Shown here: in pieces, positions 5,472 through 64,000 of the stretch
Position numbering within the stretch: the first letter of the stretch is position 1
Layout: the number at the start of each line of letters is the position of its first letter
NCBI GenBank assembly: GCA_963770895.1
Contig: CAVYRF010000002.1
Span: 5,760,001-5,824,000, forward strand
Direction: 5' to 3'
DNA: 64,000 bases
Source: an uncultured Acidobacteriota bacterium
GTDB lineage: Bacteria; Acidobacteriota; Thermoanaerobaculia; Multivoradales; UBA5704
Made by a program: the position numbers and the translations under genes
Notes under the pieces: model-generated
Told to the model about the DNA's origin: nothing
Seen by the model: only the letters and a program-made list of their open reading frames with translations
Databases searched by the model: none

Positions 5472-5500
5472 CTGAGGCTCCTTTCCGGTTGATCGCTGCT

Positions 5501-11857: not shown

Positions 11858-11876
11858 CTCCGTTCTCCTTCTCCCC

Positions 11877-40531: not shown

Positions 40532-41237
40532 TAGTGTAGTGCGCCCTAATTAGGAATCCTTATATGCGGTTCGTACGTATCGTCCTGTGGGAGGATTTGG
40601 GACGATGCGGATCGCACCGTTGGTTCTGGTTTCGCCGGAGGAAAGGCGGCAGTTGGAGGCCTATGCCCGAGGCCGCAGCACGCCGACGCGTCTGGTGCAG
40701 CGCGCGAAGATCGTCTTGCTGGCCGCCGAGGGCAAGGAGAATCGGGAAATTGCCGAAAGTCTTGGCATCATGCGGCATACCGTCGGACGTTGGCGGAGCC
40801 GCTTTTGCCAGTTCGGCCTGAGCGGGATCGAGAAAGACGCTCATCGAAGTGGGCGCCTGCCGAGCCTGTCCCAGGGCTTGCTACGGAAGATCGTGCGCAA
40901 GACAACGCAAGAGACGCCGCAGGACGGCACTCATTGGAGCACGCGGAGCATGGCCGAGGCGGTCGGGGTCAGCGCCTCGACGGTGCGCCGGGTCTGGCAG
41001 CGGCACGGCCTCAAGCCTCATCGGGTGCGGACCTTCAAGCTGAGCAACGATCGACGCTTTGTCGAGAAAATGGAAGATGTCATCGCGCTCTATCTCAACC
41101 CGCCAGAGCACGCCCTCGTCTTGTGTGCCGATGAGAAGAGCCAGATCCAGGCTCTTGATCGGACTCAACCCGGCCTGCCGATGAAGAAGGGCCGCTGCGG
41201 CACGATGACGCACGACTACAAGCGCAATGGCACCACG
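40532..41237 (+). mobile_element. Truncated IS630-family element (copy 1; transposase from 40605 broken)
   Basis: Near-identical to the start of 53254-54423 including the left end TAGTGTAGTGCG; identity stops at CACCACG 41237. Confidence 0.9.
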
Positions 41238-42237
41238 CACCAGCCCAAAAGGTAGTCGTTGAGTGACTCGAAGCTGGCGAAACGACGACCCGCCAACGCA
41301 TTGCCCTTGATGTATTTGACACCGCTCTCCACCTTGCCTTTCGTTTGAGCCCGGTAGTAGCGGCACAGCTGCACCTTGACTCCGTAGAAGTCCATGCGAT
41401 CCTTGAACGTGGCGTTCCAGCTCACACGGCCCGTGGCCTCGTCTTTGGCAATGACGATCGTCCGCGGGTTGTCGTAGAGCAAGCTCTCCGGCCGACCGCC
41501 AAAGTGAGCAAATGCCGCCGCATGAGCCTCCAGCAACGACTCCAAACCCTCATTGCAGTAGGCTTTGGCGAACAACCGCCGGCTGAAGCCCAGTACCATG
41601 GTGAACAGGTGCACCCGTACCTGCTGCTCGCCGAGATAGATCCAGGTGCTGCCCCAGTCCACCTGGCCTTGCTTACCTGGCTCGGTCTCGAAGCGCACCG
41701 TCGACTCGGCCGGCCGCTGCGCCGCCCGCCACGACGCGATGTACTTCGCCACCGTCGAGGCGCTGCACCGCTGGCCAAGATGCGCCAGCTCACGACTCAG
41801 CACCACGCTGTTGAACCCCACCTCCGGGGCTCGCACCCGCAAGAACGGCACCCAACGGTCCAGGACACGCCCCCGCCGCCGACGGTGCTGCACCTGCCAG
41901 ACCCGCGCCCACCACTTCCGCACGGTCTTTACGTCGAGGCCGAGCTGCCGCGCAATCGCCTTCTTCGCCACTCCACGCTCCCGCAAAGCGGCGATCGCTC
42001 CCCACATCCCCTCGTCGACCAACTCGCCCTCCTGGGCGCCTCCAGGCGCCGCAGAGAGCATGTCCGACTCCGGTGCCGGCAACGGCGCCGGCTCCTGCTC
42101 CGCATGCACCTCGGCCGCCGGCACGCCGGCCGCCGCCACTTCGCTGCTGCTGCTTGTTTCGCTCATTCCCTTCCTCCGTGCGGAGGGGGGGAATTTTAGC
42201 GTCCAGCATGGGGGGAATTTAGGCCGTCTCGCTGACA
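41238..42237 (-). mobile_element. istA: Truncated IS21-family element (istA 5' part, 42166 downward)
   Basis: TGTCAGCGAGACG end at 42237, RFETEPG.QGQVDW, YDNPR, QTKGKVES; diverged relative of the copy at 56229. Confidence 0.88.
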
Positions 42238-42402
42238 CGGCGTGCCGGTCTGGGTGCCGATCTGCAGCCAGTCGTCGACCATGCGGTCGGCGGCATCGAA
42301 CTGGCGCAGGCCGGTGACGCCGTTGGCGAGGGCGCGGGCGGCCAGCAGGTCGGGGCCGCGGAAGCCGAAGGTGGCGAGCGGCGTGGACGACGTGGGGCCG
42401 AC
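42238..42402 (-). pseudogene. Isolated Rhs core fragment (VGPTSSTPLATFGF...IGTQTG)
   Basis: Near-identical to 47441-47603 and the equivalent part of the 59-60 kb Rhs. Confidence 0.85.
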
Positions 42403-42785: not shown

Positions 42786-44230
42786 CAGTAATGTCCGGTT
42801 AGAAGTCGAACAGAATGAGTTGGTTAGCCGCAGTGCGCAGTTCTCGCTGGGACCGGTCAGGCTGGAAAGCGCATGAAACCTCGGTTTTCTCGAAGACCGA
42901 GACCGACAAGATCTGTAGACATGTGTAGAGCGAGGCATCGAGTTGAAGCTCCTTCTTAAGGATGGCAATCAGCACGTAGGTCGCGACGGCGCACCAGATT
43001 TGCGTCTTCACGGCGTTCTCGCTGGTGCCCAGGAATCGCTTGATGCGCAGATGTTGCTTGATCCACTTGAAGAACAGCTCGACCTGCCATCGGCTCTTGT
43101 ACAAGGCAGCGATCGCCAACGGTGGCAAAGTCGTGTTGTTTGTCAGGAAAACAAGCGTCTTGCCCGAAAAGGGGTCCTTGAAACGGACGCGCCGCAAATG
43201 CTCCGGGTAGGCCTTGGCCGAGTAGAAGCCATTGAGCATCACGCGCTGGTCGCAGATCACGCCAGTGGCGCGTTGCGTCTCAAACGAATACACCCGCCGG
43301 GCGGCCATTCCATGCTTGGCGCGGGTGACGAAGAAGGCTCCGGTCTGATGCATCGCATAGAGCCGCGCGAAGTCGACATAGCCGCGATCCATGACGTAGA
43401 AGGCTCCAGCCTCGACGGGCAGGATGTCGAGCACTTTCACATCGTGAAGTTTGCCGTCGCTGATGAGGATGAACGTTGGAATCGCGCCGCGCAGGTCCAG
43501 AAGCGTATGCAGCTTGACCGCCGCCCTGGTCGATTGAAACGGCGCCCAGTCGAACAGGCTCAGGCACAGATCGATGGTGGTGGAGTCGAGGGCGTAGACG
43601 CTGGTGTCGAGATCGAGGACCGAAGGCTCTTGCGCATAGAGTGCTCTGGCGCGCACGATCAGCCGCTGAGCCAGCGCCTGATAGATACGCCAGTCGCGAC
43701 GCTCGAGCGCGTCGGCCAGCGTCGAGCGGGCGGGCGCTGCCTTGATTCCCATGTGGAAGAGCTTGCCTTGATTGGCAGCGAGGCAAGCCTCGATGTCGCG
43801 CAGAGACTCGCGCCAAGTGAGCTGCGCGAAGGCCATGATACGGAACAGGTCGGCGCAACTGAGGGTACGAACGCCAGCATCGCCCTTGTGTCGCTCGATG
43901 ATGCGTCCGAAGGTCTTCCAGGGGACGAACTCCATCACCTGTGCGAACAGCGTCTTGCCCACGTTCATGCGTCACCTCGGATCGGTCTGACCCGAGAGCA
44001 TCGCAAATCGTCTGCTCAAGATGGGGCATCGCGGTGAAGTGCGGGGAGCGTGCCTCAGGCCTCAACCGCGGTCTCGAGCCGTCGAGCTCGGAGCCGCCCT
44101 TTGCACCGGACTCCAGGTCATCCTGTACGCAAGGCCAGGAATTCAAATCGTGGACACCCATCGGAGGCCGCAAGTGCCAGTCACTGCCACGTTTGTGGCA
44201 ACAGGTCGCCAAAACAACCGGACACTACTG
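42786..44230 (-). mobile_element. IS4-family element
   Basis: 15-bp IRs CAGTA(A/G)TGTCCGGTT; 9-bp TSD TCGAAACCC at 42777-42785 and 44231-44239. Confidence 0.92.
42799..43968 (-). CDS. IS4 family transposase (DUF4372 + DDE)
   Basis: FAQLTWRESLRDIE, DSTTI, DRGY, YKSRWQVELFFKWIKQHL. Confidence 0.94.
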   Translation of the reverse strand: MNVGKTLFAQVMEFVPWKTFGRIIERHKGDAGVRTLSCADLFRIMAFAQLTWRESLRDIEACLAANQGKLFHMGIKAAPARSTLADALERRDWRIYQALAQRLIVRARALYAQEPSVLDLDTSVYALDSTTIDLCLSLFDWAPFQSTRAAVKLHTLLDLRGAIPTFILISDGKLHDVKVLDILPVEAGAFYVMDRGYVDFARLYAMHQTGAFFVTRAKHGMAARRVYSFETQRATGVICDQRVMLNGFYSAKAYPEHLRRVRFKDPFSGKTLVFLTNNTTLPPLAIAALYKSRWQVELFFKWIKQHLRIKRFLGTSENAVKTQIWCAVATYVLIAILKKELQLDASLYTCLQILSVSVFEKTEVSCAFQPDRSQRELRTAANQLILFDF

Positions 44231-44297
44231 TCGAAACCCTTATATCAAAGAGATTGCGCAATCTCGCGGACCGTCAAAGTGTCGTCCAGGATAATTG

Positions 44298-44518: not shown

Positions 44519-45085
44519 TTATACCTCTAGCACCTTCGGCATCGAGGCCCATTGGTCCTCAAATCTATCCCTCCATTCTTGAAGAATGCCATAAAATCTG
44601 TCGGCGGCAAGATATATATCGCTTACGGAGAAGGGATCGAACCTACCCGAACATCTAAACGCCACTAGACGAACACGGTCATGGATGTCGAATTGCAATA
44701 TATGGCTGCCATCATCAAATGCCTCATCGCCGTCTGGGGCCCAAAGAAGGCGGTGCGAATAGGTCATATTAGAGAATTCTGCCTGTGAAACCCCAAAGAT
44801 CGTCTCGCTAACATGGCCATCAGAGTAGAGACTCGAGCTGACGGCCTCGGCGATCTGATCTGCACCTGACTCGGCGATAAACGAAGTGTGCTTGCCACGA
44901 TCGGCTATGCGTCGCTCAACCTCGTCGAACGAATTGGCTAACATTGATGCGTGGGGACTACATACGCCGTAGCGACTCCCCTTCACGTAGATCACGAAGT
45001 AACCCAGGGCTCGCAGGCTCAGCCGCTCATAGGCGCGGGTAATGCTTGACTCAATAGCAGCAATTGAGGGCTCACCCACGATCAT
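44519..45085 (-). CDS. Immunity protein, Imm42-like
   Basis: MIVG.P...AIES.I..AY....ALG.F, EAFDDGS.ILQFD..RVRL.AF; overlaps the Rhs stop; low GC. Confidence 0.72.
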   Translation of the reverse strand: MIVGEPSIAAIESSITRAYERLSLRALGYFVIYVKGSRYGVCSPHASMLANSFDEVERRIADRGKHTSFIAESGADQIAEAVSSSLYSDGHVSETIFGVSQAEFSNMTYSHRLLWAPDGDEAFDDGSHILQFDIHDRVRLVAFRCSGRFDPFSVSDIYLAADRFYGILQEWRDRFEDQWASMPKVLEV

Positions 45086-48000
45086 TCAATAGCCTCCTAA
45101 TCTCGATGGGTATATTGTCCTGCCTGATTGGCTCGGGACCTGCCGTTGAGCCATTCCAATGAGATTCACCATTGCTTGGAGCGCTGAACCGATGAATCGT
45201 TCCATCTTCATCCTTAGCCCATCGAACACCTTTCTCATCGACGACCGACTTATCGAAAAGCTCTTGGGCGTTCTTTGGTTCTGGGCTAGGCGAGCCCGGG
45301 TGATGCTTAGGATTTGTGACACGCTTCGGACGCGTCTCCATTTCAGGATCGGCACTCTTGGGCGCTGGGTCTCCGGCCTTTTTCGTTTTCGGCTTGTCTC
45401 GTTGTTCGCTAGCAGTCCCCTTATCATGCAACTTCATCGCATATGTGACGCCATTTGCGGCCACCGCAGCAGCGCCTGCCGCGGCTGCAGCCCCCCCAAC
45501 ACAGCCGGCTGCGGGCACAAGAACGCCAGGCCCAGTTACGACAGCTGGGACTGTTGCAGCGCACGCGACCGCCGTTTCTGCGCCTGCGGCCCCCGCCCCC
45601 GTTGCCCCCGCAGCTGCTCCGAAGATTGATCCCACATACTGTCCGGCGCGTTGGGCTGTAGTATCGTTGTTCTTGGGTTTTGAGTTCGGATCGTTCGGAT
45701 TAATACTGCCTGCGAGCCCCTGGCCAACTCCGGCGGCAAACTCCGTAGCTACCCGCTTGGCGCAATCTGCAGTGCTTTCGCCCTCGTTGCAGGTCCCCAA
45801 CGGGTCGCTGCCGTTTCCCGGGTTGTCCATCTCAAAGGCGTACGTTGACGGTCCATCAATGTACCCCTTCGGGTCCGCCGTGATGAACCGCCCCAGCTGC
45901 GGGTCGTAGTAGCGGTTGCGGAAGTAGAGGAGGCCGGTTTCGGGGTCCAGGCTGCGGCCTTGGTAGCCGAAGAGATTGCCTAGGGCGGAGCCGGTGGCGA
46001 GCTGGGGGTTGGGGGCGGTGTAGACGATGAGGCTGTCTTGCGCTGTGACGGTGGTGAAGGTCTGGCTGAAGGGCGCGGCGAGAGGCTGGTTGCCCGCATC
46101 GGTCAGGGTGGTGGCGATTGTCAGGGTGTGCGCGCCGGCGGCAACTGGATTGGCTGCTTGGAGCGTGTAGTGGTCGGCAGCCAGGCTCCAGGTCAGGCCT
46201 ACGCCGTCCAGCTGGATCGCTGCCGTCGCTGCGGCCAGGTTTGGCTCGGCGGAAAACTCGACCGAAAGCATCCCCTGCTGCAGGGTGACGCGCTGCACGG
46301 TGGGGGCTGCCAGGCCGGCGACGACGGCGTCCGAGGCTGGCCAGGTAAAGGCCAGCGTGTAGTCGTGGGCGGGCTGGTTGAGGAAGCTGTCGACCAGGGC
46401 GCCGGCCGGGATGGTCAGGGTGACCTGGTCGCCGGGCTGGAAGCCTCCGGGAGGCTGGCCTACCAGGACCAGGCGCCTTTGGGCCAGGTCTCCGGTGGTC
46501 ACGGGCTGGGTGACGGTGAGTGCCCCAAATGCGGCGGGGAGGGTGTTGTCAAAGAGCTTCAGGGTGCCGACGGTGGCGGCCTGGGCGAGCGGGCCGGGGT
46601 TTACGGCCTCGGAGAGCTCGACCCAAACGGCGTTGCCGACGACCCTCACCTGCTCAACCGCAGGCGGAGTGGAGTTTACCAGGATCGTCTGGGTGCCGTA
46701 GGGGGTGTAGTCGTAGCGCTCGATGGGTAGACCGGTCGGACCGGTGAGCAGGACCAGATTGCCGGTGGAGTCGTAGAGGGGCCAGGACTTGGTGGCGACG
46801 GTGCCGGTGCCGTCCAGGTCGGACTCCAGGTAGACGATGTCGTCGAGGCTGTCGCCGTAGGTGCGGCGCTGCAGGAGACGGCTGCCGTCGTAGTCCTCGA
46901 TGGGGTGCCAGCCCTGCCAGGTGGTGGTCTTGACGTCTCCTGCCACGGTCTTGGCAATGCGGCGGTTCCAGGCGTCGTAGTCGTAGTGGGCGATGGGGTT
47001 GTTGCTGCCGTCGGCGACGTCGGTGAGGCGGTTGCGGAAGTCGTAGGAATAGTGAACGTTGCCCTTCTGGATCAGGTTGCCGTTGCGGTCCCAGACCAGC
47101 GCTACCCCGCTGACGGAGCCCGGCCGGTTGCGGCCCGAGCCGTCGAGGGGCAGCGCGGTCGTGGCAAGCACTCCGGCGTTGGTGGCGGTGCGGGCCAGCA
47201 GGTTCTGCGCTACGTCGTAGGTGTAGCCGAAGGCGTCCGGCAGGCCGGCCAGGGCGGGCGGCGCGACGGCGGTGTTGTTGGGTGTCAAGGTCAGCGGCGC
47301 CGGCGATTTGGCGGCCTGGATGAGGCGCTCGGCGGGGTCGTAGGCGAAGGCCAGGCCCTGGCCGCCCAGGTCCTGGCGCGCTTGCGCCGAGCGCAGGCCG
47401 CGCGGGCTCCAGGCCAGGCTCTCGCGCATGACGGTCTGGGGCGTGCCGGTCTGGGTGCCGATCTGCAGCCAATCGTCGACCATGCGGTCGGCGGCGTCGA
47501 ACTGGCGCAGGCCGGTGACGCCGTTGGCGAGGGCGCGGGCGGCCAGCAGGTCGGGGCCGCGGAAGCCGAAGGTGGCGAGCGGCGTGGACGACGTCGGGCC
47601 GACAGACTGCAGGCGATCGAGCGGATCGAAGGCGCGCACCAGGTTGAGGCCCGACGGATAACCGATCGCGGTTTCGTTGCCGGCGTCGTCGTAGGTGTAG
47701 TTGACGAACTTGCCGCCCAGCGATTCACTGGTGCGCCGCGACAGGGAATCGAACGTCAGGTCCGTCGTCTGGTTGCCGGACTGCGCGTGGGTGAGCCGCC
47801 CCATGCCGTCGTAGACATAGGACTCGGACAACGCTCCGCCCTGGCGCGAGGTCATCCTGTTGAGCGCATCGAAGACCTGCTGGATCAACGTTCCGTTGGG
47901 GTCGGTGACCTGGGTGGCGTTGCCGTTGGCGTCGTAGGCGGTCTGCTCGGTGGTGTGGTCCGGCCAGGTGACCAGGACCAGGCGGTTGAGGGCGTCGTAG

Positions 48001-48385
48001 GCGTAGGTGGTGGCGTTGCCCGGGGCGTCGGTGTAGGCGGTGAGGCGCGAGCTGGCGTCGTAGGTGGAGTCCACCTCGATGCCCAGCGGCTGGACCCGCT
48101 TGATCAGACGATTGAGCCCGTCCCAGGTCTGGGTGGTCAGGTTCTGTTCGGCATCGACGCTCAGCGCCAGCTGGTTGCGGGCGTCGTGGGTGAACACCTC
48201 GGCGTTGCCCAGGCCGTCGGTGCGGGTGGCCTGCCGGTTGAGGGCGTCGAAGGTGGCGGTTGCGGTGACGGTGACCGATCCGCCGGTGCCCGGCGCGCCG
48301 ACGCCTTCGTACTGTTCGATCGTGCGCGTGGTGACGGGATTGCCCGCGGCGTCCAGGTCGTGCTGCACGACGTTGCCGGCGGGGT
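45072..48385 (-). CDS. Orphan Rhs cassette C (5'-truncated core + Ig insert + putative RNase-type toxin KHH..HRF..HWNGST)
   Basis: YD repeats, RYYDPQLGRFITADP, PGNGSDPLG cleavage motif; Rhs homology begins abruptly at 48385 and no clear start codon or RBS is visible. Confidence 0.85.
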
Positions 48386-48546
48386 GTCCGCTAATCCGGG
48401 GCAAGGCCAGGGCTCGGCGCGGAGCGGCGGAGGCCGGCGCAGCCGGCCGCAGCGCGAGCACCGAGACCGTTCCTTCTGGGAGCCCCCTTGAGGGGGCGAC
48501 CGCCCGGCGGCCGGCGCTCCCCGGCAGTCCCTGAGGCCGGCCCCAG

Positions 48547-48571
48547 TTGACATAAGCCTCGCTTATGTCAA
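48547..48571. other. Palindromic dif-like site (XerD-arm type) TTGACATAA-N7-TTATGTCAA
   Basis: Perfect 10-bp inverted repeat; arm resembles the XerD half of dif (TTATGTTAA). Confidence 0.65.
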
Positions 48572-48599
48572 GGCCGCAGGCCCAAGGCGGGGCGGCCGA

Positions 48600-48637
48600 G
48601 GGCCAGGTCGGATAAGTGCACTTATCGGACCTGGCCC
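48600..48637. other. Palindromic dif-like site (XerC-arm type) GTCGGATAA-N6-TTATCGGAC inside a 38-bp palindrome
   Basis: 38-bp palindrome with one mismatch, extended by a 13-bp outer stem 48587-48599/48648-48660. Confidence 0.6.
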
Positions 48638-50227: not shown

Positions 50228-50230
50228 GGC

Positions 50231-52750: not shown

Positions 52751-52762
52751 AAGGAGACAACG

Positions 52763-53161: not shown

Positions 53162-53253
53162 TGTGGCGGCTAATGAGTGGCAGGGGGAAAGATACCCTTG
53201 GTCGCGGTAGGCATAGGGCGTGCCTGAATTACGCGAAGCACAGTAATGGCTCC

Positions 53254-56297: not shown

Positions 56298-57680
56298 ATG
56301 AGCGAAGCAAGTGGCAGCGAGATGGAGTCGGCCTTGGTGCCGGCGGCGCCTGCGGCACCGGCGGCCGAGGCGGAGGTGCAGCGGGGAGCGGTGTCGGACA
56401 TGCTCTCTGCGGCGCCTGGAGGCGCCCAGGAGGGCGAGTTGGTCGACGAGCGACTGTGGGGAGTGATCGCCGCTTTGCGGGAGCGTGGCGTGGCAAAGAA
56501 GGCGATTGCGCGGCAGCTCGGGCTCGACGTGAAGACGGTGCGGAAGTGGTGGCAGCGGAGCTGGCAGGCCCAGCAGCGCCGGCGGCGGGGGCGCCTTCTG
56601 GATCAGTGGGAGGCGTTCTTGCGGGCGCGAGCGCCGGAGGTGGGGTTCAACAGCGTCGTGCTGAGCCGCGAGCTGGCAGGTCTTGGCCAGCGCTGCTGCA
56701 CCTCGACGGTCTCAAAGTACATCGCGCCATGGCGAGCGGAGCAGCGGGCGGTGGAGCCGACGGTGCGGTTCGAGACCGGCCCCGGCAAGCAAGGGCAGGT
56801 GGACTGGGGGAGCACCTGGATCTATCTCGGCGAGGAGAGGGTGCGGGTGCACCTGTTCACGATGGTGCTGGGCTTCAGCCGCCGGCTGTTCGCCAAGGCG
56901 TACCTCAACGAGGGGCTGGAATCGCTGCTGGACGGTCATGCGGCGGCGTTCGCGCACTTCGGCGGTCGTCCGGAGAGCTTGCTGTACGACAACCCGCGGA
57001 CGATCGTCACCGCCAAGGACGAGGCGACGGGCAAGGTGAGCTGGAACGCCACCTTCAAGGACCGCATGGACTTCTACGGGTTGAAGCTCCAGCTGTGCCG
57101 CTACTACCGGGCTCAAACGAAGGGCAAGGTGGAGAGCGGCGTCAAGTACGTCAAGGGCAACGGCTTGGCGGGCCGGCGTTTCGCCAGCCTCGATGCGCTC
57201 AATGATCACCTTCTGAGATGGTGTGTGGAGGTGGCCGACCAACGGGTGCACGGGACGACGCACGAGAAGCCTGCGGAGCGATTCGCCCGTGCCGAGCGGC
57301 TGATTGCGGTGGACCAGCGTTCACCGACGCCACGGGAGCGGGTGGTGAGCCGGCAGGTGCCCCGTGACGCCTACGTCGCGGTCGAGGCCAATCGCTATCC
57401 GGTGCCGCTGGAGTGGGCTGGCGCGGTTGTGGAAGTGCGCCTTCTGGCCGAGGAGATCTGGATCCATCGGGATGGGGCCGATCCCGTCCGCCATGTCCGG
57501 TTGACGGGCAAGCACCAGGTGGCGCGCTGGAGCGGTGCTGGCCGGGAGGTGCCGCGGCGACCACCCGCGCCCGCTGCGGGGCCGCCGCGCTTCGATCCGG
57601 CCTACGTGGAGCAGATCGGCGAGGTCGAGATCCGTCCGCTCGGCCGCTACGAAGGGCTGCTCTCCGAGGTGCACTCATGA
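56298..57680 (+). CDS. istA: IS21 transposase IstA
   Basis: RFETGPG.QGQVDW, YDNPR, QTKGKVES, RVHGTT. Confidence 0.94.
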   Translation: MSEASGSEMESALVPAAPAAPAAEAEVQRGAVSDMLSAAPGGAQEGELVDERLWGVIAALRERGVAKKAIARQLGLDVKTVRKWWQRSWQAQQRRRRGRLLDQWEAFLRARAPEVGFNSVVLSRELAGLGQRCCTSTVSKYIAPWRAEQRAVEPTVRFETGPGKQGQVDWGSTWIYLGEERVRVHLFTMVLGFSRRLFAKAYLNEGLESLLDGHAAAFAHFGGRPESLLYDNPRTIVTAKDEATGKVSWNATFKDRMDFYGLKLQLCRYYRAQTKGKVESGVKYVKGNGLAGRRFASLDALNDHLLRWCVEVADQRVHGTTHEKPAERFARAERLIAVDQRSPTPRERVVSRQVPRDAYVAVEANRYPVPLEWAGAVVEVRLLAEEIWIHRDGADPVRHVRLTGKHQVARWSGAGREVPRRPPAPAAGPPRFDPAYVEQIGEVEIRPLGRYEGLLSEVHS

Positions 57681-58489
57681 GCGCCGGTACGGTCCAGATC
57701 GATCGGCTCCAGGAGCAGCTGCGGCGTCTGAAGCTGGTGCGCACGGCTGACCAGCTGCCGTCGCTGCTTCAGGAGGCGAGCAAGAAGGAGTTGCCATATA
57801 CCGACCTGCTCGAGGATCTTCTCGGCCGGGAGCTGGCGGCCAAGCAAGAGCGCCACACGGCGATGAAGACGAGCATGGCGCGCTTCCCGTTCCACAAGAC
57901 GCTGGAGAGCTTCGACTTCAAGTTTCAGCCGTCGATCGAGCCGAAGGTGATCCGAGAGCTCGCCACCTGCCGGTTCATCGCCGACGCGGACAACGTGCTG
58001 CTGCTCGGGCCGCCCGGGGTCGGCAAGACGCACCTGTCGGTGGCCCTGGGCCTGAAGGCTTGTGCCGCCGGCTACCGGACGGCCTTCGCGACGGCGACCT
58101 CGCTGGTCAACACGCTGACGCGGGCGCACCAGGAGAACCGCTTGGAGGAGAAGCTGAAGCAGCTCATCCAGCCCAAGCTACTGATAATAGACGAGATCGG
58201 ATATCTGCCGCTCGACCGTCTGGGGGCGAATCTTCTCTTCCAGCTGGTGTCGCGCCGCTACGAGCGCGGCTCGATCCTGATCACGTCGAACCAGAGCCTG
58301 GCCGGCTGGGGTCAGGTCTTTGGCGACCAGGTGATCGCGACGGCGATTCTCGACCGGCTGCTGCATCACTCCACCATCGTCAACATCAAGGGCGAGAGCT
58401 ACCGGCTGAAGGAGAAGCGCAAGGCTGGGCTGCTGACGCGCAGCGAGCCGCACGTCGCCGAGTCGCTTGCGGCCGAGGAGGCGAGCTGA
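57677..58489 (+). CDS. istB: IS21 helper ATPase IstB
   Basis: GPPGVGKT, IIDEIGY, ILDRLLHH, GESYR; ATGA overlap with istA. Confidence 0.95.
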   Translation: MSAGTVQIDRLQEQLRRLKLVRTADQLPSLLQEASKKELPYTDLLEDLLGRELAAKQERHTAMKTSMARFPFHKTLESFDFKFQPSIEPKVIRELATCRFIADADNVLLLGPPGVGKTHLSVALGLKACAAGYRTAFATATSLVNTLTRAHQENRLEEKLKQLIQPKLLIIDEIGYLPLDRLGANLLFQLVSRRYERGSILITSNQSLAGWGQVFGDQVIATAILDRLLHHSTIVNIKGESYRLKEKRKAGLLTRSEPHVAESLAAEEAS

Positions 58490-61158
58490 TCATGCGGTGG
58501 CAAAGAAGCGAGTCCGCCATGATCGCCGCCCTGGGAACGCCCTCAAGGCCAGCGCGCGCTACGCGCCTGGGAGGGAGTGTCTGGTGCCGATCTCCCAGGG
58601 TGGCGGCGCCGGCGACGGCTGCCCTCCCGTCCCCCACCGCCCACCCAACGCACGCATGGGCTATGGAAGGCGCCGGGTCGGCGGAAACCGCGGACCCAAC
58701 GGGGGCCGCCCGTGTCGCTACGCTCCACGGCCCCCACCCACCGCGGCCCCCGGTCCGCCGTTCCCGCCGCCCCTTGGAAACCGGCTCCCGGCCCCCCGCG
58801 CACCCGCCCTTCACCCACCCACCCTCGCCGCTTTCCACCCCTTCCACAGCCCCGGCGACGAGGTACGCATACCTGAGTTTTAGAAGCAAAAGCAACAGCA
58901 CTCAGCAGGCAACGGTAAACCCGAGACCTGTCCCTGCGGGACAGGTCCACTAACCGAGGAGGGGGGGAAAATTAACGTCGCGCTGGGGGGGAAATTTGGC
59001 GTCGTCTTGACAAGGGTGTTGTCAAAGAGCTTCAGGGTGCCGACGGTGGCGGCCTGGGCGAGCGGGCCGGGGTTTACAGCCTCGGAGAGCTCGACCCAAA
59101 CGGCGTTGCCGACGACCCTCACCTGCTCAACCGCAGGCGGAGTGGAGTTTACCAGGATCGTCTGGGTGCCGTAGGGGGTGTAGTCGTAGCGCTCGATGGG
59201 CAGACCGGTCGGACCGGTGAGCAGGACCAGATTGCCGGTGGAGTCGTAGAGGGGCCAGGACTTGGTGGCGACGGTGCCGGTGCCGTCCAGGTCGGACTCC
59301 AGGTAGACGATGTCGTCGAGGCTGTCGCCGTAGGTGCGGCGCTGCAGGAGACGGCTGCCGTCGTAGTCCTCGATGGGGTGCCAGCCCTGCCAGGTGGTGG
59401 TCTTGACGTCTCCTGCCACGGTCTTGGCAATGCGGCGGTTCCAGGCGTCGTAGTCGTAGTGGGCGATGGGGTTGTTGCTGCCGTCGGCGACGTCGGTCAG
59501 CCGGTTGCGGAAGTCGTAGGAATAGTGAACGTTGCCCTTCTGGATCAGGTTGCCGTTGCGGTCCCAGACCAGTGCTACCCCGCTGACGGAGCCCGGCCGG
59601 TTGCGGCCCGAGCCGTCGAGCGGCAGCGGGGTCGTGGCGGGCACTCCGGCGTGGGTGGCGGTGCGGGCCAGGAGGTTCTGCGCCGCGTCGTAGGTGTAGC
59701 CGAAGGCGTCGGGCAGGCCGGCCAGGGTGGCCGGTGCGACGGCGGTGTTGTTGGGCACCAGGGTCAGCGGCGCCGGCGATTTGGCGGCCTGGATGAGGCG
59801 CTCGGCGGGGTCGTAGGCGAAGGCCAGGCCCTGGCCGCCCAGGTCCTGCCGCGCTTGCGCGGAGCGCAGGTTGCGCGGGCTCCAGGCCAGGCTCTCTCGC
59901 ATGACGGTCTGCGGCGTGCCGGTCTGGGTGCCGATTTGCAGCCAGTCGTCGACCATGCGGTCGGCGGCGTCGAACTGGCGCAGGCCGGTGACGCCGTTGG
60001 CGAGGGCGCGGGCGGCCTGCAGGTCGGGGCCGCGGAAGCCGAAGGTGGCGAGCGGCGTGGACGAGGTCGGGCCGACGGACTGCAAGCGGTCCAGAGGATC
60101 GAAGGCGCGCACCAGGTTGTAGCCCGACGGATAGCCGATCGCGGTTTCGTTGCCGGCGTCGTCGTAGGTGTAGTTGACGAACTTGCCGCCCAGCGATTCG
60201 CTGGTGCGCCGCGACAGGGAGTCGAACGTCAGGTCGGTCGTCTGGTTGCCGGACTGCGCGTGGGTGAGCCGCCCCATGCCGTCGTAGACGTAGGACTCGG
60301 AGAGCGCTCCGCCCTGCCGCGAGGTCATCCGGTTGAGCGAATCGAAGACCTGCTGGATCAACGTGCCGTTGGGATCGGTGATCTGGGTGGCGTTGCCGTT
60401 GGCGTCGTAGGCGGTCTGCTCGGTGGTGTGGTCCGGCCAGGTGACCAGGACCAGGCGGTTGAGGGCGTCGTAGGCGTAGGTGGTGGCATTGCCCAGGGCA
60501 TCGGTGTAGGCGGTGAGGCGCGAGCTGGCGTCGTAGGTGGAGTCCACCTCGATGCCCAGCGGCTGGACCCGCTTGATCAGACGATTGAGCCCGTCCCAGG
60601 TCTGGGTGGTCAGGTTCTGTTCGGCATCGACGCTCAGCGCCAACTGGTTGCGGGCATCGTAGGTGAACGCCTCGGTGTTGCCCAGGCCGTCGGTGCGGGT
60701 GGCCTGCCGGTTGAGGGCGTCGAAGGTGGCGGTCGCGGTGACGGTGACCGATCCGCCGGTGCCCGGCGCGCCGACGCCTTCGTACTGCTCGATCGTGCCC
60801 GTGGTGACGGGGTTGCCCGCGGCGTCGAGGTCGTGCTGCACGACGTTGCCGGCGGGGTCGGTGGTGGCGGTGCGCCGCTCGGCGGCGTCGTATTGGAACT
60901 GCGTGGTGCGATGCAGCGGATCGATCACCGCCACCAGGTTGGACGCCGGGTCGTACTGGTAGGACGTCGTCAGGTCGCGCGCGCTGCCCGGCAGCCCGGA
61001 ACCGTTGGTCTGGGTGCCGATTTGCAGCCAGTCGTCGACCATGCGGTCGCCGGCGTCGAACTGGCGCAGGCCGGTGACGCCGTTAGCGAGGGCGCGGGCG
61101 GCCTGCAGGTCGGGGCCGCGGAAGCCGAAGGTGGCGAGGGGCGTGGACTCGGATTAAC

Positions 61159-61548
61159 TCAAAGTCCATCCGTGGCAACGCCCGTAAATCTGTCCCACTC
61201 ACGGCAATATGTTCTGCTTGCTTCACCGAGCATCGGAGCTATGCGACGAAAATCAAGTTGTCCCGCAGAGGCTTGCGCCAGCAATGACTCCAAAAAACCA
61301 GTGGCAATGGCAGCTTGTGTTTCTTCATCGGACATAACCAAAAAGTTCTCGACAAGATCGAAGATCGCACGCATTTCTCCATCGGAGATGTCGGTTGCAT
61401 TTTGCGCCAATGCTTGCGCAATCACTCCCATTGCGAAGGTGACAGGAGGCTTATCCGGCATCCAGTCACTTTCCAAGTCCCGTATAGACCTGCTAGTGGC
61501 ATTTGTCAACTTGGCCAACTGGCGCACGCTTTCATATGTCGATGGCAT
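61159..61548 (-). CDS. Immunity protein of cassette A (helical, CdiI-like)
   Basis: Immediately after the toxin stop, low GC, F..VE..L......AIATGFLE.L pattern. Confidence 0.7.
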   Translation of the reverse strand: MPSTYESVRQLAKLTNATSRSIRDLESDWMPDKPPVTFAMGVIAQALAQNATDISDGEMRAIFDLVENFLVMSDEETQAAIATGFLESLLAQASAGQLDFRRIAPMLGEASRTYCREWDRFTGVATDGL

Positions 61549-61554
61549 GGATTT

Positions 61555-64000
61555 CTATTTTCCAGATAGAGCATTCCCGAGATCCTTAACAACATTCTCC
61601 GCCGCCGCTCGATCCCCGGGAGACGCTGTCGGATTATTCCTGAGCCACCTATTCAGCGCCGCGATGTAATCCTGAGCCTTCTGTGTATGGAACTTGCCAC
61701 CGACACTCATTTCCGTGCTCTGCTCCTCTCGAACGGCTGCAGCCGTGCTACCACTTCCCACACTTGCACCCGGCCGGTAGAGGTCGTTCATGATCTGATT
61801 TAGCTTCGGATCTCGCACCGCCGGGCGACTCATCTGAGCCCGTAAGGAGTCCTTGTAGGCTTCAAATGAAGCGCGATTCGAGGCGCCATTCTCTGGCTCT
61901 TCGACCACCAGCTCCGTATTCGTCGCGCCAGAAGGCCCACCGGCAAAGGCGGGAGTAGGAGGCAATGCACCGGCCAGCAACCCCGTCGCGACCATTGGTG
62001 CACCAACTGTCCAAGCTAAGACTCGCTCGCCTTCGGCGTTCCCCTTCGCGATCTCCTCAGGCGTCGGTTGCGGTCTAAAGGTCGTTACAGTGTGCGCATC
62101 AGTCCATGACTTGGGTCCGGTCTCCTCGCGAATCAGTTGTCCCGGCGCTGCGGCCCAAATCGCCTGCACATAGCTCATCCGCCGGTTCCGAAGATCGTCA
62201 AACTTGGTTCTATATTCATCGTCCGAAACTTTGATGCCCTGGTAGGTCCCCGACTTGTTGTATTCGACTGTAAGATCATTCTGCGACTTCGTGATGCTGC
62301 GAACATACGCCTTGTCATCCTCATCCAAATCACGGAGCCCCATTGGGTCGCTGCCGTTCGTCGGGTCGTCCACCTCGAAGGCATACGTCGATGGTCCGTC
62401 CGTGTAGCCCTTGGGATCTGCGGTGATGAACCGCCCCAGCTGCGGGTCGTAGTAGCGGTTGCGGAAGTAGATGAGGCCGGTTTCGGGGTCTAGGTTGCGG
62501 CCTTGGTAGCCGAAGAGATTGCCTAGGGCGGAGCCGGTGGCGAGCTGGGGGTTGGGGGCGGTGTAGACGACGAGGCTGTCTTGCGCTGTGACGGTGGTGA
62601 AGGTCTGGCTGAAGGGCGCGGCCAGAGGCTGGTTGCCTGCATCGGTCAGGGTGGTGGCGATCGTCAGGGTGTGCGCGCCGGCGGCAACTGGAGTGGCTGC
62701 TTGGAGCGTGTAGTGGTCGGCGGCTAGGCTCCAGGTCAGGCCGGCGCCGTCCAGCTGCATCGCTGCCGTCGCTGCGGCCAGGTTGGGCTCGGCGGAAAAC
62801 TCGACCGAAAGCATCCCCTGCTGCAGGGTGACGCGCTGCACGGTGGGGGCTGCCAGGTCGGCGACGACGGCGTCCGAGGATGGCCAGGTAAAGGTCAGGG
62901 TGTAGTCGTGGGCGGGCTGGTTGAGGAAGCTGTCGACCAGGGCGCCGGCCGGGATGGTCAGGGTGACCTGGTCGCCGGGTTGGAAGCCTCCGGGGGGCTG
63001 GCCTACCAGTACCAGGCGCCTTTGGGCCAGGTCTCCCGTGGTTACGGGCTGGGTGACGGTGAGTGCCCCAAAGGCGGCGGGGAGGGTGTTGTCAAAGAGC
63101 TTCAGGGTGCCGACGGTGGCGGCCTGGGCGAGCGGACCGGGGTTTACGGCCTCGGAGAGCTCGACCCAGAGGGCGTTGCCGACGACCCTCACCTGCTCAA
63201 CCGCAGGCGGAGTGGAGTTTACCAGGATCGTCTGGGTGCCGTAGGGGGTGTAGTCGTAGCGCTCGATGGGTAGACCGGTCGGACCGGTCAGCAGGACCAG
63301 ATTGCCGGTGGAGTCGTAGAGGGGCCAGGACTTGGTGGCGACGGTGCCGGTGCCGTCCAGGTCGGACTCCAGGTAGACGATGTCGTCGAGGCTGTCGCCG
63401 TAGGTGCGGCGCTGCAGCAGGCGGCTGCCGTCGTAGTCCTCGATGGGGTGCCAGCCCTGCCAGGTGGTGGTCTTGACGTCTCCTGCCACGGTCTTGGCGA
63501 TGCGGCGGTTCCAGGCGTCGTAGTCGTAGTGGGCGATGGGGTTGTTGCTGCCGTCGGCGACGTCGGTGAGGCGGTTGCGGAAGTCGTAGGAATAGTGAAC
63601 GTTGCCCTTCTGGATCAGGTTGCCGTTGCGGTCCCAGACCAGCGCTACCCCGCTGACGGAGCCCGGCCGGTTGCGGCCCGAGCCGTCGAGGGGCAGCGCG
63701 GTCGTGGCAAGCACTCCGGCGTGGGTGGCGGTGCGGGCCAGCAGGTTCTGCGCTACGTCGTAGGTGTAGCCGAAGGCGTCCGGCAGGCCGGCCAGGGCGG
63801 GCGGCGCGACGGCGGTGTTGTTGGGCGCCAGGGTCAGCGGCGCCGGCGATTTGGCGGCCTGGATGAGGCGCTCGGCGGGGTCGTAGGCGAAGGCCAGGCC
63901 CTGGCCGCCCAGGTCCTGGCGCGCTTGCGCCGAGCGCAGGTTGCGCGGGCTCCAGGCCAGGCTCTCGCGCATGACGGTCTGCGGCGTGCCGGTCTGGGTG
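61555..64000 (-). CDS. Rhs protein A (5' end outside window) with Ig insert and Ntox28-like (CdiA-EC536-type tRNase) C-terminal toxin
   Basis: YD repeats, PTNGSDPMG; the CT segment KLNQIMNDLYRPGASVGSGSTAAAVREE...GGKFHTQKAQD...DLGNAL matches the Ntox28 pattern as recalled. Confidence 0.85.
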   Translation of the reverse strand, partial: TQTGTPQTVMRESLAWSPRNLRSAQARQDLGGQGLAFAYDPAERLIQAAKSPAPLTLAPNNTAVAPPALAGLPDAFGYTYDVAQNLLARTATHAGVLATTALPLDGSGRNRPGSVSGVALVWDRNGNLIQKGNVHYSYDFRNRLTDVADGSNNPIAHYDYDAWNRRIAKTVAGDVKTTTWQGWHPIEDYDGSRLLQRRTYGDSLDDIVYLESDLDGTGTVATKSWPLYDSTGNLVLLTGPTGLPIERYDYTPYGTQTILVNSTPPAVEQVRVVGNALWVELSEAVNPGPLAQAATVGTLKLFDNTLPAAFGALTVTQPVTTGDLAQRRLVLVGQPPGGFQPGDQVTLTIPAGALVDSFLNQPAHDYTLTFTWPSSDAVVADLAAPTVQRVTLQQGMLSVEFSAEPNLAAATAAMQLDGAGLTWSLAADHYTLQAATPVAAGAHTLTIATTLTDAGNQPLAAPFSQTFTTVTAQDSLVVYTAPNPQLATGSALGNLFGYQGRNLDPETGLIYFRNRYYDPQLGRFITADPKGYTDGPSTYAFEVDDPTNGSDPMGLRDLDEDDKAYVRSITKSQNDLTVEYNKSGTYQGIKVSDDEYRTKFDDLRNRRMSYVQAIWAAAPGQLIREETGPKSWTDAHTVTTFRPQPTPEEIAKGNAEGERVLAWTVGAPMVATGLLAGALPPTPAFAGGPSGATNTELVVEEPENGASNRASFEAYKDSLRAQMSRPAVRDPKLNQIMNDLYRPGASVGSGSTAAAVREEQSTEMSVGGKFHTQKAQDYIAALNRWLRNNPTASPGDRAAAENVVKDLGNALSGK

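Follow-up and report, generated by a model that had tools for sequence, protein, structure and literature searches.

A defective copy of a widespread mobile element, tied to Rhs toxin cassettes, in an acidobacterial Rhs array

Rhs loci are known in which a main gene is followed by displaced orphans, each comprising a core fragment of variable length, a tip and an immunity gene. For this C-terminal displacement Jackson et al. 2009 (PMC2935791) predicted an episomal circle with a core fragment and a new tip, which inserts by a single crossover. The portion of their account considered here names no carrier, whereas in the family described below a replicon and a recombinase are located at the junction and a plasmid form occurs. 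Tandem orphan toxin/immunity pairs interspersed with integrase genes were reported in 2016 (PMC4927057). In the rAID systems of Bacteroidales, according to the part of the description available (10.1101/2025.05.03.651265), a tyrosine recombinase adjoins low-GC toxin-defence genes that share its orientation and have conserved motifs between them, and these systems are thought to be mobilisable.

The window is a stretch of 64,000 nt from an uncultured Acidobacteriota bacterium (Multivoradales, UBA5704; GTDB: Acidobacteriota; Thermoanaerobaculia), assembly GCA_963770895.1, contig CAVYRF010000002.1, positions 5,760,001-5,824,000 of the forward strand, of which the region 40,532-64,000 was analysed. 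We refer to the end of the giant main Rhs gene as cassette C and to the orphans as B and then A; the module lies between B and A. The Rhs cassettes comprise the following features.

42238-42402, minus strand: isolated Rhs core fragment of 165 nt, remnant of an older orphan (97-98% identity to 47440-47603 and 59912-60076)
44519-45085, minus strand: immunity gene of cassette A, immA (Imm42 PF15593, E 3e-8, above cut-off; GC 52%)
45072-45794, minus strand: toxin C-terminus of cassette A, following PGNGSDPLG (GC 58%; unrelated to those of B and C)
45795-48385, minus strand: orphan Rhs core A, 863 aa (96.6-96.7% identity to core C; RHS repeats E 2e-30)
54416-54931, minus strand: candidate immunity gene of cassette B, immB (by position; GC 52%)
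54843-56228, minus strand: cassette B toxin C-terminus (54843-55479) and tip-proximal core (55480-56228), with the TIGR03696 tip at 55476-55673
59013-61006, minus strand: upstream part of core B (96.5-97% identity to A and C)
61007-61148, minus strand: second isolated fragment of the same core segment as 42238-42402 (96-98% identity to 47448-47589 and 59921-60062)
61159-61548, minus strand: immunity gene of cassette C, immC (DUF7674 E 4.5e-9, above cut-off; GC 51%)
61555-64000, minus strand: 3′ end of the giant main Rhs gene, with its toxin C-terminus at 61555-62337 and the core from 62338, continuing past the window

In line with the initial annotation, three near-identical Rhs cores are present, all on the minus strand and 93-97% identical over as much as 2591 nt. 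At the end of each is a TIGR03696 tip, which scores above the curated cut-off (at 45795-45986 in core A) and carries the motif PxxxxDPxG (PGNGSDPLG, PANDSDPMG and PTNGSDPMG). The switch after this motif to a different low-GC toxin and an immunity gene, also proposed earlier, was seen in all three cassettes: the C-termini are mutually unrelated, with a GC content of 53-58% versus 69% in the Rhs core, and a small ORF of 51-52% GC follows each of them. The C-terminus of cassette B contains a HEEQGH motif, and a Pfam profile search returned no family for immB or for any of the three C-termini. The giant ORF exceeds 3757 aa, is open at the end of contig C2 and contains RHS repeats (E 5e-61), Big_5 and DUF6531. 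Cassette C is the end of this gene, and A and B are 5′-truncated orphans that begin at unequal points: relative to the giant gene, core A begins at residue 2635 and lacks a credible start codon of its own, and core B, by blastx against the giant ORF, begins at residue 2585. As a counterpoint to import, core A shares 96.7% identity with core C and is host-like in GC, which local duplication or gene conversion could explain. The displacement of B by C left no element behind, a counterpoint to the vehicle reading given below.

Five IS copies in the array had been overlooked in the first reading.

40531-41237, plus strand: partial IS630-family copy, truncated by the element that follows (99.7% identity to 53253-53958)
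41233-42237, minus strand: IS21-like fragment with a terminal inverted repeat (85% identity to 56229-57228, inverted)
42799-43968, minus strand: IS4-family transposase (DUF4372 E 4e-29; DDE_Tnp_1 E 4e-27)
53253-54424, plus strand: complete IS630-family element with transposase at 53326-54411 (DDE_3 E 1.5e-21; terminal inverted repeats read)
56229-59012, plus strand: IS21 element with istA at 56256-57680 and istB ending at 58489 (rve, Mu-transpos_C_2; IstB E 8e-92; inverted repeats)

The complete IS630-family element sits between the XRE gene and immB, and its right end overlaps the final immB codons. The IS21 element at 56229-59012 interrupts the core of cassette B, with a 5-bp duplication, AGGGT. 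Cassette remnants had previously been placed at 42.2-44.3 kb; the core fragment at 42238-42402 is such a remnant, and the rest of this interval is mostly IS DNA.

The module between B and A consists of three genes and a spacer.

48386-49180, minus strand: element spacer between core A and the recombinase gene, matching the corresponding spacers of related loci
48410-48473 and 48761-48825: 65-bp direct repeats R2 and R1 in the spacer
48478-48498: conserved 21-nt motif in the spacer
48547-48571: pal2, dif-like, TTGACATAA-N7-TTATGTCAA (fold z -4.8)
48603-48640: pal1, with a GTCCGATAA-N6-TTATCCGAC core (fold z -6.0)
49181-50227, minus strand: intact XerC-like tyrosine recombinase, REC (PF00589 E 5.5e-39)
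50231-52750, minus strand: 5′-truncated primase-helicase gene, PRIM (called ORF 50231-52696, 821 aa)
52760-53158, plus strand: divergent XRE-family regulator (RstR/DicA-like HTH; 68% identity to the XRE of loci L039/L040)

REC scored 441 bits with the NF002331 XerC subfamily model (cut-off 371), which agrees with its earlier description as an intact Xer-like recombinase; the divergent XRE regulator was likewise confirmed. Assignment of REC as an integron integrase was rejected (IntI model, 105 bits; cut-off 265). The spacer, which contains the dif-like palindromes noted earlier, borders core A directly, at 48385/48386. Both pal1 and pal2 fold better than 200 of 200 of their own shuffles, and the 65-bp repeats show no unusual structure (fold z -0.5 and -1.4). 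A search of the genome for pal1, pal2 and the 65-bp repeat elsewhere gave no match, the pal2-type motif occurring once in 8.16 Mb; a single spacer carries all of them, and cassettes B and C are therefore without such a site. The spacer features recur downstream of the recombinase in five related loci (L028, L039, L040, L042 and L032).

The adjacent gene had been taken for a Toprim/P-loop protein, but it is not whole. The 821-aa ORF aligns in one piece (71% versus P0004) and covers only residues 325-1086 of relatives of ~1000-1090 aa; it keeps the MCM-like AAA+ helicase and winged-helix part and has lost the zinc finger, the DnaG core and almost the whole of Toprim. A distance of 10 nt separates the deletion junction (~52750) from the start of the XRE gene. 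PF01807, PF08275, Toprim families and PF27228 are present in relatives, the best Foldseek matches of the AF2 model (pLDDT 72) were all MCM (E 4e-10), and the N-terminus of intact members matches DnaG primase (PDB 2au3, E 9e-28). As judged by these sequence and model comparisons, intact members are full DnaG primases fused to an MCM-like helicase. The module is the only copy in the source genome and has lost its primase domain; hence, the earlier view of a self-replicating element is not supported for this copy, which is defective and probably a fossil. That the window copy is single, without primase and without a partner site is a further counterpoint to the vehicle reading.

Comparison with related loci identifies the module, by its gene content, as a defective copy of a widespread small mobile element, whose intact backbone of ~5.3 kb is predicted to encode a divergent XRE regulator, a DnaG primase with MCM-like helicase and winged helix, and a XerC-like recombinase, followed by a dif-like site. 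REC comes after PRIM in 69 of 70 genome loci, the contig ending in the remaining one, and a divergent XRE-like ORF is found upstream of 92 of 122 PRIM starts. At about 70% identity the family comprises 8000 or more members, which by record title occur in Acidobacteriota, Myxococcota, Syntrophorhabdus, Gamma- and Betaproteobacteria, Bacteroidia and others. Every unit has an immunity gene, orphan toxins have no delivery domain, and some units contain addiction genes (RelE/DinJ, SymE, VbhA). These traits would suit a domesticated locus that serves the host in defence or diversification, a store of acquired immunity rather than a selfish replicon, comparable to the pairing of a tyrosine recombinase with orphan immunity arrays reported for rAID (10.1101/2025.05.03.651265). 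We nevertheless regard such a role as very unlikely, given that a complete primase-helicase is kept at ~70% identity across phyla, that near-identical backbones occur in different phyla (88.7% DNA identity between L034, Vulcanimicrobiales, and L050, Thermoanaerobaculia), that copies per genome range from 0 to 14, and that a free plasmid form exists, all of which fit a mobile replicon.

Enrichment of recombinase-primase homologues near Rhs cassettes, together with conserved palindromes, had been put forward as a check, and the result was strongly in its favour. Of 23 REC copies in five whole genomes, 19 (tallied by hand) are followed within 3 kb by a same-strand tip, versus 0.14 expected (binomial P 1e-38; curated TIGR03696 model, 131 tips in 31.6 Mb). 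Among the 70 loci, 45 contained 90 tip matches, 84 of them on the PRIM/REC strand. A same-strand tip lies at most 3 kb downstream of 33 of the 48 REC copies that have at least 3 kb of downstream sequence, and a tip on the other strand follows 1 of 48; at a stricter cut-off of 1e-12, 24 of 48 copies have a tip. The loci of the contig sets are mostly from Acidobacteriota and are not independent: L028, L039 and L040 overlap, and some of the 48 copies are therefore counted twice, from which the whole-genome count is free. In an independent metagenome set, all 81 tips lie on the same strand and 18 of 22 REC copies are followed by a tip, leaving 15 of 48 and 4 of 22 copies in the two sets with no Rhs tip within 3 kb.

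Taken together, these counts support a specific tie between the element family and Rhs toxin cassettes. It has to be weighed against a passive link, in which rapidly changing toxin islands merely attract or tolerate the element and it has no role in moving tips. Unrelated IS elements do fill the window array, related arrays hold a recombinase trio, IS21 and IS66, and many Rhs loci are without the element. Still, a passive link appears extremely unlikely, as the spacing from REC to the tip is fixed (mostly 250-1500 nt), as is the strand (165 of 171 tips on the same strand in both contig sets pooled), the five-genome count far exceeds expectation, the spacer and the leader up to the tip are conserved along with the backbone across genomes, and the free plasmid carries cassettes.

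The tips downstream of REC are orphans: the open frame upstream of the tip measures at most 264 aa in 76 of 77 cases and 526 aa in one. The window orphans keep a core of 863 aa, far above the 77 tips examined, again a counterpoint to the vehicle reading. In genome G002, a 1689-aa Rhs gene is followed by seven units, each located before a tip-containing open frame of 365-381 aa. Since the Rhs gene upstream of the element retains its own tip, C-terminus and room for an immunity gene, the element brings its own tip and does not merely split a gene. Most tips have no adjoining element (of 16 in the source genome, 13 are located beyond the window, and in G002 the 85 tips compare with 14 elements); displacement in general therefore does not require it.

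The element also occurs outside chromosomal arrays. The circular Lonsdalea populi plasmid NZ_CP072857.1 (11,289 bp), the one complete free plasmid form found, is built of the module and cassettes, namely two partial tips (…NPxxWxDPFGLA) fused to nuclease C-termini, plus immunity genes. Six contigs have terminal overlaps of 119-129 nt but could be collapsed tandem units, a counterpoint to the vehicle reading; in one of the contigs analysed (L101) the overlap falls within a repeated tip. Among 5426 E. coli genomes, 60 have the module in their vgrG-Rhs loci, and in E. coli MP1 vgrG-Rhs-imm is followed by two units, each with a partial tip and the same dif-like 31-mer.

The initial annotation had proposed that the recombinase captures, amplifies or reorders cassettes by site-specific recombination. 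In this view, recombination at the palindromes, as in integrons or rAID, would be the main route of exchange, and several observations are consistent with it. A conserved dif-like site occupies a fixed place after the recombinase gene, CATAA-N5-9-TTATG being found in 26 of 125 post-REC spacers versus 0.44 in shuffles, and the pal2 arms covary between lineages (GAC/GTC, TCC/GGA, GTC/GAC). Moreover, units form direct tandem arrays with a period of ~7-8 kb, the two identical MP1 31-mers, 6.8 kb apart, flank exactly one unit, and the Lonsdalea plasmid has the unit structure expected from such excision. However, each unit has a single site: at the far cassette end no second site was found, there being only terminator-like hairpins beyond XRE. 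The window has one site cluster, REC is co-oriented with the cassettes and scores poorly with the integron-integrase model, and orphan core lengths vary. Furthermore, where element copies can be compared, the palindromes are not where homology ends; it stops within the tip or leader or shortly ahead of it, ~100 nt past the tip start in L056/L061 and at leader-ORF residue 67 in L009/L019. In G002, the main gene and its orphans have only ~196 nt of tip in common, and the 3′ end of the main gene equals the next unit (100% over 2354 nt). Breaks at the tip and variable core starts are marks of homologous recombination, as in the displacement model (Jackson et al. 2009). Site-specific exchange as the main route is thus not borne out, and we consider it rather unlikely.

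The account that we favour, and hold as a whole to be reasonably likely, is that the window is a Rhs C-terminal displacement array with main gene C and displaced orphans B and then A, into which the IS630, IS21 and IS4 insertions came later, and that the element, always travelling with a polymorphic-toxin cassette (most often Rhs tip, toxin and immunity gene), would act as a replicative, integrative vehicle for this displacement. The vehicle reading is based on the element adjoining spare tips in many bacteria and existing as a free plasmid. A circular form could replicate via its own primase-helicase, and one homologous crossover in the common tip or core might bring it into a Rhs locus. The resident gene would thereby be joined to the new toxin and the old tip pushed downstream of the recombinase spacer, and repeated entry would build the order main Rhs - (CT-imm-XRE-PRIM-REC-spacer-tip)n. 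The recombinase and the dif-like site most likely resolve multimers, or excise and re-insert unit circles between neighbouring units. The copy in the source genome would mark one event, the arrival of the cassette B toxin end and the displacement of A.

Apart from the displacement model, the system reported in PMC4927057 comes close; we found the same module after a tpsA2 gene on a P. aeruginosa plasmid; the portion of that report considered names integrases in general terms and describes no primase-helicase, conserved module or site. rAID differs, as far as its available description extends, in having one recombinase with a long immunity-only array and no primase-helicase, XRE or toxin tips, whereas the present element has one cassette per recombinase unit, toxin included. 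Integrons likewise combine a tyrosine recombinase with an adjacent array of exchangeable cassettes and possible circles, but REC fails the IntI model and is co-oriented with its cassettes, no attC-like sites are present at the cassette ends, and the whole backbone is repeated per unit. SCCmec-type elements, as outlined in the part of PMC7581432 considered, are integrative, can form composite tandem arrays and have their own MCM-like helicase, primase and site-specific recombinases; they use serine recombinases and a fixed chromosomal site and carry resistance cargo, in contrast to the tyrosine recombinase, DnaG-MCM fusion, polymorphic-toxin cargo and proposed entry via toxin-gene homology here. 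Finally, dif-exploiting elements, and dif beside Neisseria vgrG effector clusters, share the CATAA-spacer-TTATG architecture (PMC10210955, in the part considered), and in E. coli MP1 each arm of the site agrees by eye with gonococcal dif at 10 of 11 positions. Those elements need host XerCD and chromosomal dif, whereas the element described here itself supplies a XerC-like gene, together with a site whose central region is longer.

The window lies 8.8 kb short of the end of contig C2 of an 8.16-Mb host genome (three contigs, 70.7% GC), and all Rhs sequence in it is on the minus strand. Comparison of the window with itself revealed one Rhs core in three copies, A, B and C, which share 93-97% identity, together with isolated pieces of one core segment:

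45795-48385, minus strand, core A
55480-56228 and 59013-61006, minus strand, core B, interrupted by IS21 (target duplication of 5 bp)
62338 to 64928, minus strand, core C, extending past the window
42238-42402 and 61007-61148, minus strand, isolated pieces of the same core segment, 142-165 nt each

The cassettes contain RHS/YD repeats (PF05593, E 2e-30 to 5e-61), and three tips, i.e. the ends of the Rhs cores, exceed the curated cut-off of TIGR03696, each with the PxxxxDPxG motif. The toxin C-termini CT-A, CT-B and CT-C are mutually dissimilar, have a GC content of 53-58% and are each followed by a small gene of 51-52% GC. Two of these genes fall into Pfam families (immA, Imm42; immC, DUF7674), and the Pfam search returned no family for immB or for any of the three toxin C-termini. 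Core C is the end of an ORF that exceeds 3757 aa and encodes Ig-like domains, DUF6531 and RHS repeats; measured against this ORF, the first residue of A is 2635 and that of B is 2585. Thus, repeats with a tip, unrelated C-termini followed by an immunity gene, and 5′-truncated orphans downstream of a full-length gene are all present, as in an Rhs polymorphic toxin locus with orphan cassettes. The giant ORF (C2:5821555-5832828, corresponding to 1555-12828 of the end region L001) exits the contig, and no continuation of at least 150 aa was found at the start of C2, so that the contig may break inside this repeat-rich Rhs gene. An Rfam scan of 40000-64000 matched no family. A second array of the same genome (C2:4905149-4931701) comprises an Rhs frame of 4048 aa and a pair of long orphan frames (2095 and 1594 aa), with no primase or recombinase module; a motif of the spacer downstream of the window recombinase is matched there over 28 nt (93%, C2:4915293-4915320).

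The array likewise contains IS DNA:

53253-54424, complete IS630-family element, one end overlapping the immB stop codon
40531-41237, partial IS630-family element
56229-59012, IS21, inside core B
41233-42237, IS21 fragment, 85% identical to the IS21 at 56229-59012
42799-43968, IS4-family transposase

The two IS630-family copies are 99.7% identical, as opposed to just 85% for the IS21-type pair, which suggests recent activity of the IS630 family. In the initial annotation the Rhs cassettes and the module lying among them were seen, but these IS630, IS21 and IS4 copies were overlooked.

The module consists of a divergent XRE gene, a primase-helicase gene (PRIM), a tyrosine recombinase gene (REC) and a spacer, and it occurs once in the genome:

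49181-50227, REC, intact
52760-53158, divergent XRE gene, its start 10 nt from a junction at about 52750

The REC product scores 441 bits with NF002331, the NCBIfam XerC subfamily (cut-off 371). The 821-aa primase-helicase ORF matched no Pfam or NCBIfam family and, by sequence, no PDB entry; PHROGs returned one family of unknown function. The Pfam copy searched predates PF27228, an accession that a literature search found in no paper. At least 8000 relatives share about 70% identity with the ORF; nearly all are 950-1150 aa long, with the domain order CHC2 zinc finger, DnaG catalytic core, Toprim and PF27228. The window protein aligns as a single uninterrupted piece to residues 325-1086 only of P0004, the closest relative among the matches listed (86% identical), and the last ~20 residues of the Toprim domain are legible to about 52750, immediately before the XRE gene. 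Because the match is restricted in this way and a Toprim remnant lies close to XRE, about 1 kb of primase coding sequence has been deleted, and the window gene is a truncated member of its family. The order of primase and recombinase is retained, with residues 1-324 of a protein of about 1000-1090 aa missing. Likewise gone is the region between PRIM and XRE, in which the nearest relatives carry two SymE-like ORFs. The initial annotation, which was right about the cores, cassettes, recombinase, XRE regulator and palindromes, had therefore missed, besides the IS DNA, that its 'Toprim/P-loop' protein is not whole. The N-terminus of the full-length family protein matches the DnaG primase 2au3 (E 9e-28), and for the C-terminal part that the window retains, modelled with AlphaFold (pLDDT 72), the best Foldseek matches are MCM helicases (E 4e-10, probability 1.0). 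From these two matches the family protein is predicted to be a fusion of DnaG primase, MCM-like helicase and winged helix, i.e. a replication protein.

Short contigs from soil metagenomes of one study match parts of the REC and helicase genes within 49467-51935 without a single difference, and a strain identical or very close to this one may be present in those soils at low depth. Sequence from 48000-53300 was found in just four runs of one soil-metagenome study, at shares of 0.05-0.18; in these short contigs the spacer is uncovered and no junction is bridged. The pieces of Rhs core diverge at 48385, as the B and C copies do.

The spacer between the REC stop codon and core A measures about 795 nt and has four features:

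48761-48825 and 48410-48473, two 65-bp direct repeats, one on either side of the palindromes
48603-48640, pal1, near-perfect palindrome with the core GTCCGATAA-N6-TTATCCGAC
48547-48571, pal2, perfect palindrome, TTGACATAA-N7-TTATGTCAA
48478-48498, 21-nt motif

Both palindromes fold better than shuffled sequences (pal1, z -6.0; pal2, z -4.8; 0 of 200 shuffles as good for either), while the 65-bp repeats, tested as hairpins, were no better than shuffles. A search of the 8.16-Mb genome found pal1, pal2, the 65-bp repeat and the 21-nt motif nowhere beyond this spacer, and CATAA-N6-8-TTATG occurs exactly once. All spacer features match the spacers downstream of REC in related loci from a Thermoanaerobaculia genome and an uncultured proteobacterium. 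In the alignment the arms of pal1 are kept and its centre varies; the arms of pal2 vary by lineage yet remain complementary (GAC/GTC, TCC/GGA, GTC/GAC). Moreover, CATAA-N5-9-TTATG is present in 26 of 125 such spacers (shuffles: mean 0.44, maximum 3). Given this excess and the conserved or complementary arms, the palindromes are fairly described as dif-like and conserved. The window thus combines a divergent XRE gene and a dif-like palindrome with a same-strand tip downstream of REC.

The association with Rhs tips was analysed in 70 element loci from species-representative genomes and in an independent set of 79 metagenome loci. PRIM is followed by REC in 69 of the 70 genome loci, the last being a contig end, and across both sets a divergent XRE-like ORF lies at most 1.5 kb upstream of 92 of 122 PRIM starts, with none on the same strand. 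A purpose-built profile of the Rhs tip detected 90 tips in 45 of the 70 genome loci, 84 of them on the module strand; five of the six on the opposite strand come after an inverted REC copy in one locus (L065). Among REC copies with at least 3 kb of downstream sequence, 33 of 48 (a count that includes duplicates, since L028, L039 and L040 overlap) are followed within 3 kb by a tip on their own strand, usually 250-1500 nt away, and one has a tip on the opposite strand; at a profile cut-off of 1e-12, 24 of the 48 retain their same-strand tip. In the metagenome set, all 81 tips are on the module strand and 18 of 22 REC copies have one. As a control, the curated TIGR03696 model and REC were searched in five whole genomes, which hold 131 tips in 31.6 Mb, and the pairs were tallied by hand: 19 of 23 REC copies are followed by a same-strand tip within 3 kb, where 0.14 would be expected (binomial P 1e-38). 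The enrichment of Rhs tips beside recombinase-primase homologues, which had been put forward initially as a check, is hence borne out in all three counts.

For 28 elements the sequence extends far enough in both directions to look for tips on either side: 17 are flanked by tips on both, five have them downstream only, two upstream only and four not at all. Loci without a tip mostly contain other small toxin-like ORFs, several with HExxH, and small partner ORFs, or inserted mobile DNA of other kinds. Conversely, most Rhs tips in the examined genomes have no element nearby. The open frame that precedes a tip downstream of REC is at most 264 aa long in 76 of 77 cases and 526 aa in one; the window orphans are much longer than those at other element loci. 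In one genome (G002), a 1689-aa Rhs gene is followed by seven units, each trailed by a tip-containing open frame of 365-381 aa. Such orphan tip ORFs of Thermoanaerobaculia arrays (e.g. L028 13996-15051) open with an apparent signal peptide, which raises the question of whether they might be expressed independently.

The full-length protein is encoded in 195 plasmid records. The complete circular plasmid NZ_CP072857.1 of Lonsdalea populi (11,289 bp) carries genes for an HTH regulator, SymE, a 'DNA primase', xerC and RelE/DinJ, together with a further, truncated unit and two cassettes. Each cassette joins the final ~35 residues of an Rhs tip (…NPxxWxDPFGLA) to a nuclease C-terminus and has an immunity gene behind it. 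Overlapping contig ends were also weighed as a sign of circles and set aside as ambiguous, because collapsed tandem units give the same overlap. Among complete E. coli genomes the module is present in 60 of 5426, chromosomal in all and at a median of four places. In the mouse commensal E. coli MP1, vgrG, a chaperone gene, Rhs and an immunity gene are followed by two units with an identical dif-like 31-mer about 160-200 nt past xerC and a partial tip about 700 nt beyond. The same order was found on a Ralstonia solanacearum megaplasmid and a Janthinobacterium plasmid. The xerC genes of the neighbouring MP1 units (L158, 7270-8313 and 13998-15035) are 78.6% identical, with both flanks at 94% and identical 31-mers; judging from this pattern, the units form a mosaic centred on the recombinase. 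On the P. aeruginosa plasmid NZ_CP090650.1 (L157, 157802-178678) the module follows not an Rhs gene but tpsA2, a CDI-type gene of two-partner secretion, indicating that the family serves polymorphic toxins more widely than Rhs. Also present at this locus are an orphan resembling a C39 peptidase and an immunity gene that is repeated; IS66 interrupts the second unit.

Several further ORFs recur in the units. Small SymE-family (AbrB-fold) ORFs adjoin XRE in many of them (L028 16352-16865; L154 5290-5625 and 9310-9615; L158 11766-12095 and 18736-19065) and are missing from the window copy. Some acidobacterial units carry a ribbon-helix-helix-looking ORF of ~120-130 aa (L019 14994-15353; L044 5584-5985 and 13833-14222), which we take to resemble plasmid mobilisation accessory proteins. 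In two loci (L006 13095-16385, L026 2440-5730) three successive tyrosine-recombinase-like ORFs directly follow REC, presumably a 'recombinase in trio' insertion.

The Rhs gene upstream of an element retains its own tip, its toxin and space for an immunity gene ahead of XRE. For this reason, the element does not merely split a gene; it arrives with its own tip. Where near-identical backbones from different genomes are compared, the shared block stops downstream either just short of the tip or within it: about 100 nt inside it for L056 and L061 (94.5% identical), and at residue 67 of the conserved leader for L009 and L019 (95% identical). For L034 and L050 (88.7% identical, from different phyla) the shared block starts 520 nt ahead of the primase. 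The main gene of the seven-unit array has only about 196 nt of tip in common with its orphans, and its 3′ end is 100% identical to the next unit over 2354 nt. Such junctions are hallmarks of homologous exchange within the conserved tip, in line with the C-terminal displacement model. As formulated by Jackson et al. 2009 (PMC2935791), displacement requires a circle that bears part of a core plus a new tip and integrates through one crossover. The observed order, i.e. main Rhs fused to the new CT, immunity gene, XRE, PRIM, REC, spacer, old tip, old CT and immunity gene, is what a single crossover predicts if the circle is the element.

The initial annotation had instead proposed a self-replicating integrative element that shuffles Rhs cassettes by site-specific recombination at the palindromes. 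Its association with Rhs and the mobility of the family hold up. Site-specific shuffling of cassettes is not supported: none of the junctions compared has its breakpoint at a palindrome; on the far side of XRE, where another recombination site was sought in the window, L028 and L040, only terminator-like hairpins were seen; and the marks of exchange lie in the tip. Self-replication of the window copy is likewise not supported, as its primase domain is deleted. As far as sequences can tell, the evidence supports a family of replicative, integrative elements with a toxin tip cassette as cargo. Each unit has a single conserved site, and along an array these sites are direct repeats; the recombinase may accordingly resolve multimers or excise and re-insert unit circles, and the unit structure of the Lonsdalea plasmid fits the latter. 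On this view, the window copy is what remains of an integrated element that has lost its primase, and it records how CT-B arrived and A was displaced. Several observations weigh against this reading: in GC content core A resembles the host, its identity to C is 96.7%, no element was left by the C-over-B event, the window orphans are unusually long, and most Rhs tips lie away from any element. For the window itself the modest conclusion is a broken copy in an array that reads best as a fossil record.

The origin of new C-terminal toxin/immunity ends of Rhs and CDI proteins has been an open question since 2009, and the stable circular carrier required by the model of that year had not been identified. 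We tentatively propose, as a reading with a little less than an even chance of being right, that the family is this long-postulated episomal carrier of C-terminal displacement in Rhs and CdiA/TpsA: a DnaG-MCM mini-replicon of at least five phyla, including E. coli, whose unit circles would leave and re-enter arrays via their own XerC-like recombinase at a dif-like site, new toxin-immunity ends being installed by recombination in the conserved tip. Such a 'toxin-tip shuttle' would account for the build-up and spread of orphan arrays. If true, it would constitute a new class of small mobile element with bacterial weaponry as cargo, explain long tandem orphan arrays such as the seven units after one Rhs gene in a single genome, and provide a new marker for toxin-immunity cassettes in metagenomes. 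A conserved, recombinase-bearing predicted replicon at the displacement junction in many phyla, together with a small plasmid of the same units, renders the question directly testable, for instance in E. coli MP1.

A full-text literature search, with subscription journals and supplements outside its reach, found neither the module nor its link to Rhs tips described, and a prior mention is possible. Chloroplast rhs and primase genes of Bryopsis and Tydemania were ruled out as this element, as they belong to different species and regions. The family differs from several systems that it resembles. Integrons use an IntI-type integrase and have an attC-type site at each cassette end, whereas the window REC stays below the cut-off of both integron-integrase models (TIGR02249, 105 bits, cut-off 265; NF011946, 72, cut-off 435) and its palindromes and 65-bp repeat are confined to one spacer. 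Housekeeping XerC, a single conserved chromosomal gene, acts in dimer resolution at the terminus dif; although it passes NF002331, the element REC is linked to PRIM in 69 of 70 loci, reaches 14 copies per genome and is missing from most E. coli (present in 60 of 5426). A phage satellite (PICI or P4-like) would combine integrase, repressor and primase-helicase, all three of which the element has, with capsid-hijacking or packaging genes; inspection of individual units turned up no packaging gene, and phage records contain distant DnaG-domain matches only and in no case the full protein. In Bacteroidales rAID systems one recombinase is followed by at least two co-oriented short immunity genes with conserved intergenic motifs, whereas the window REC precedes a single cassette of core, toxin and immunity gene and then IS DNA. 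Parts of the arrangement are on record elsewhere: orphan CDI modules interspersed with integrases and transposases, mentioned in general terms (PMC4927057), XerC/D genes adjoining polyimmunity loci (Zhang et al. 2012), a tyrosine recombinase paired with immunity arrays in rAID systems (10.1101/2025.05.03.651265), dif sites next to vgrG clusters in Neisseria (PMC10210955), and an MCM-like helicase together with a primase in SCCmec (PMC7581432).
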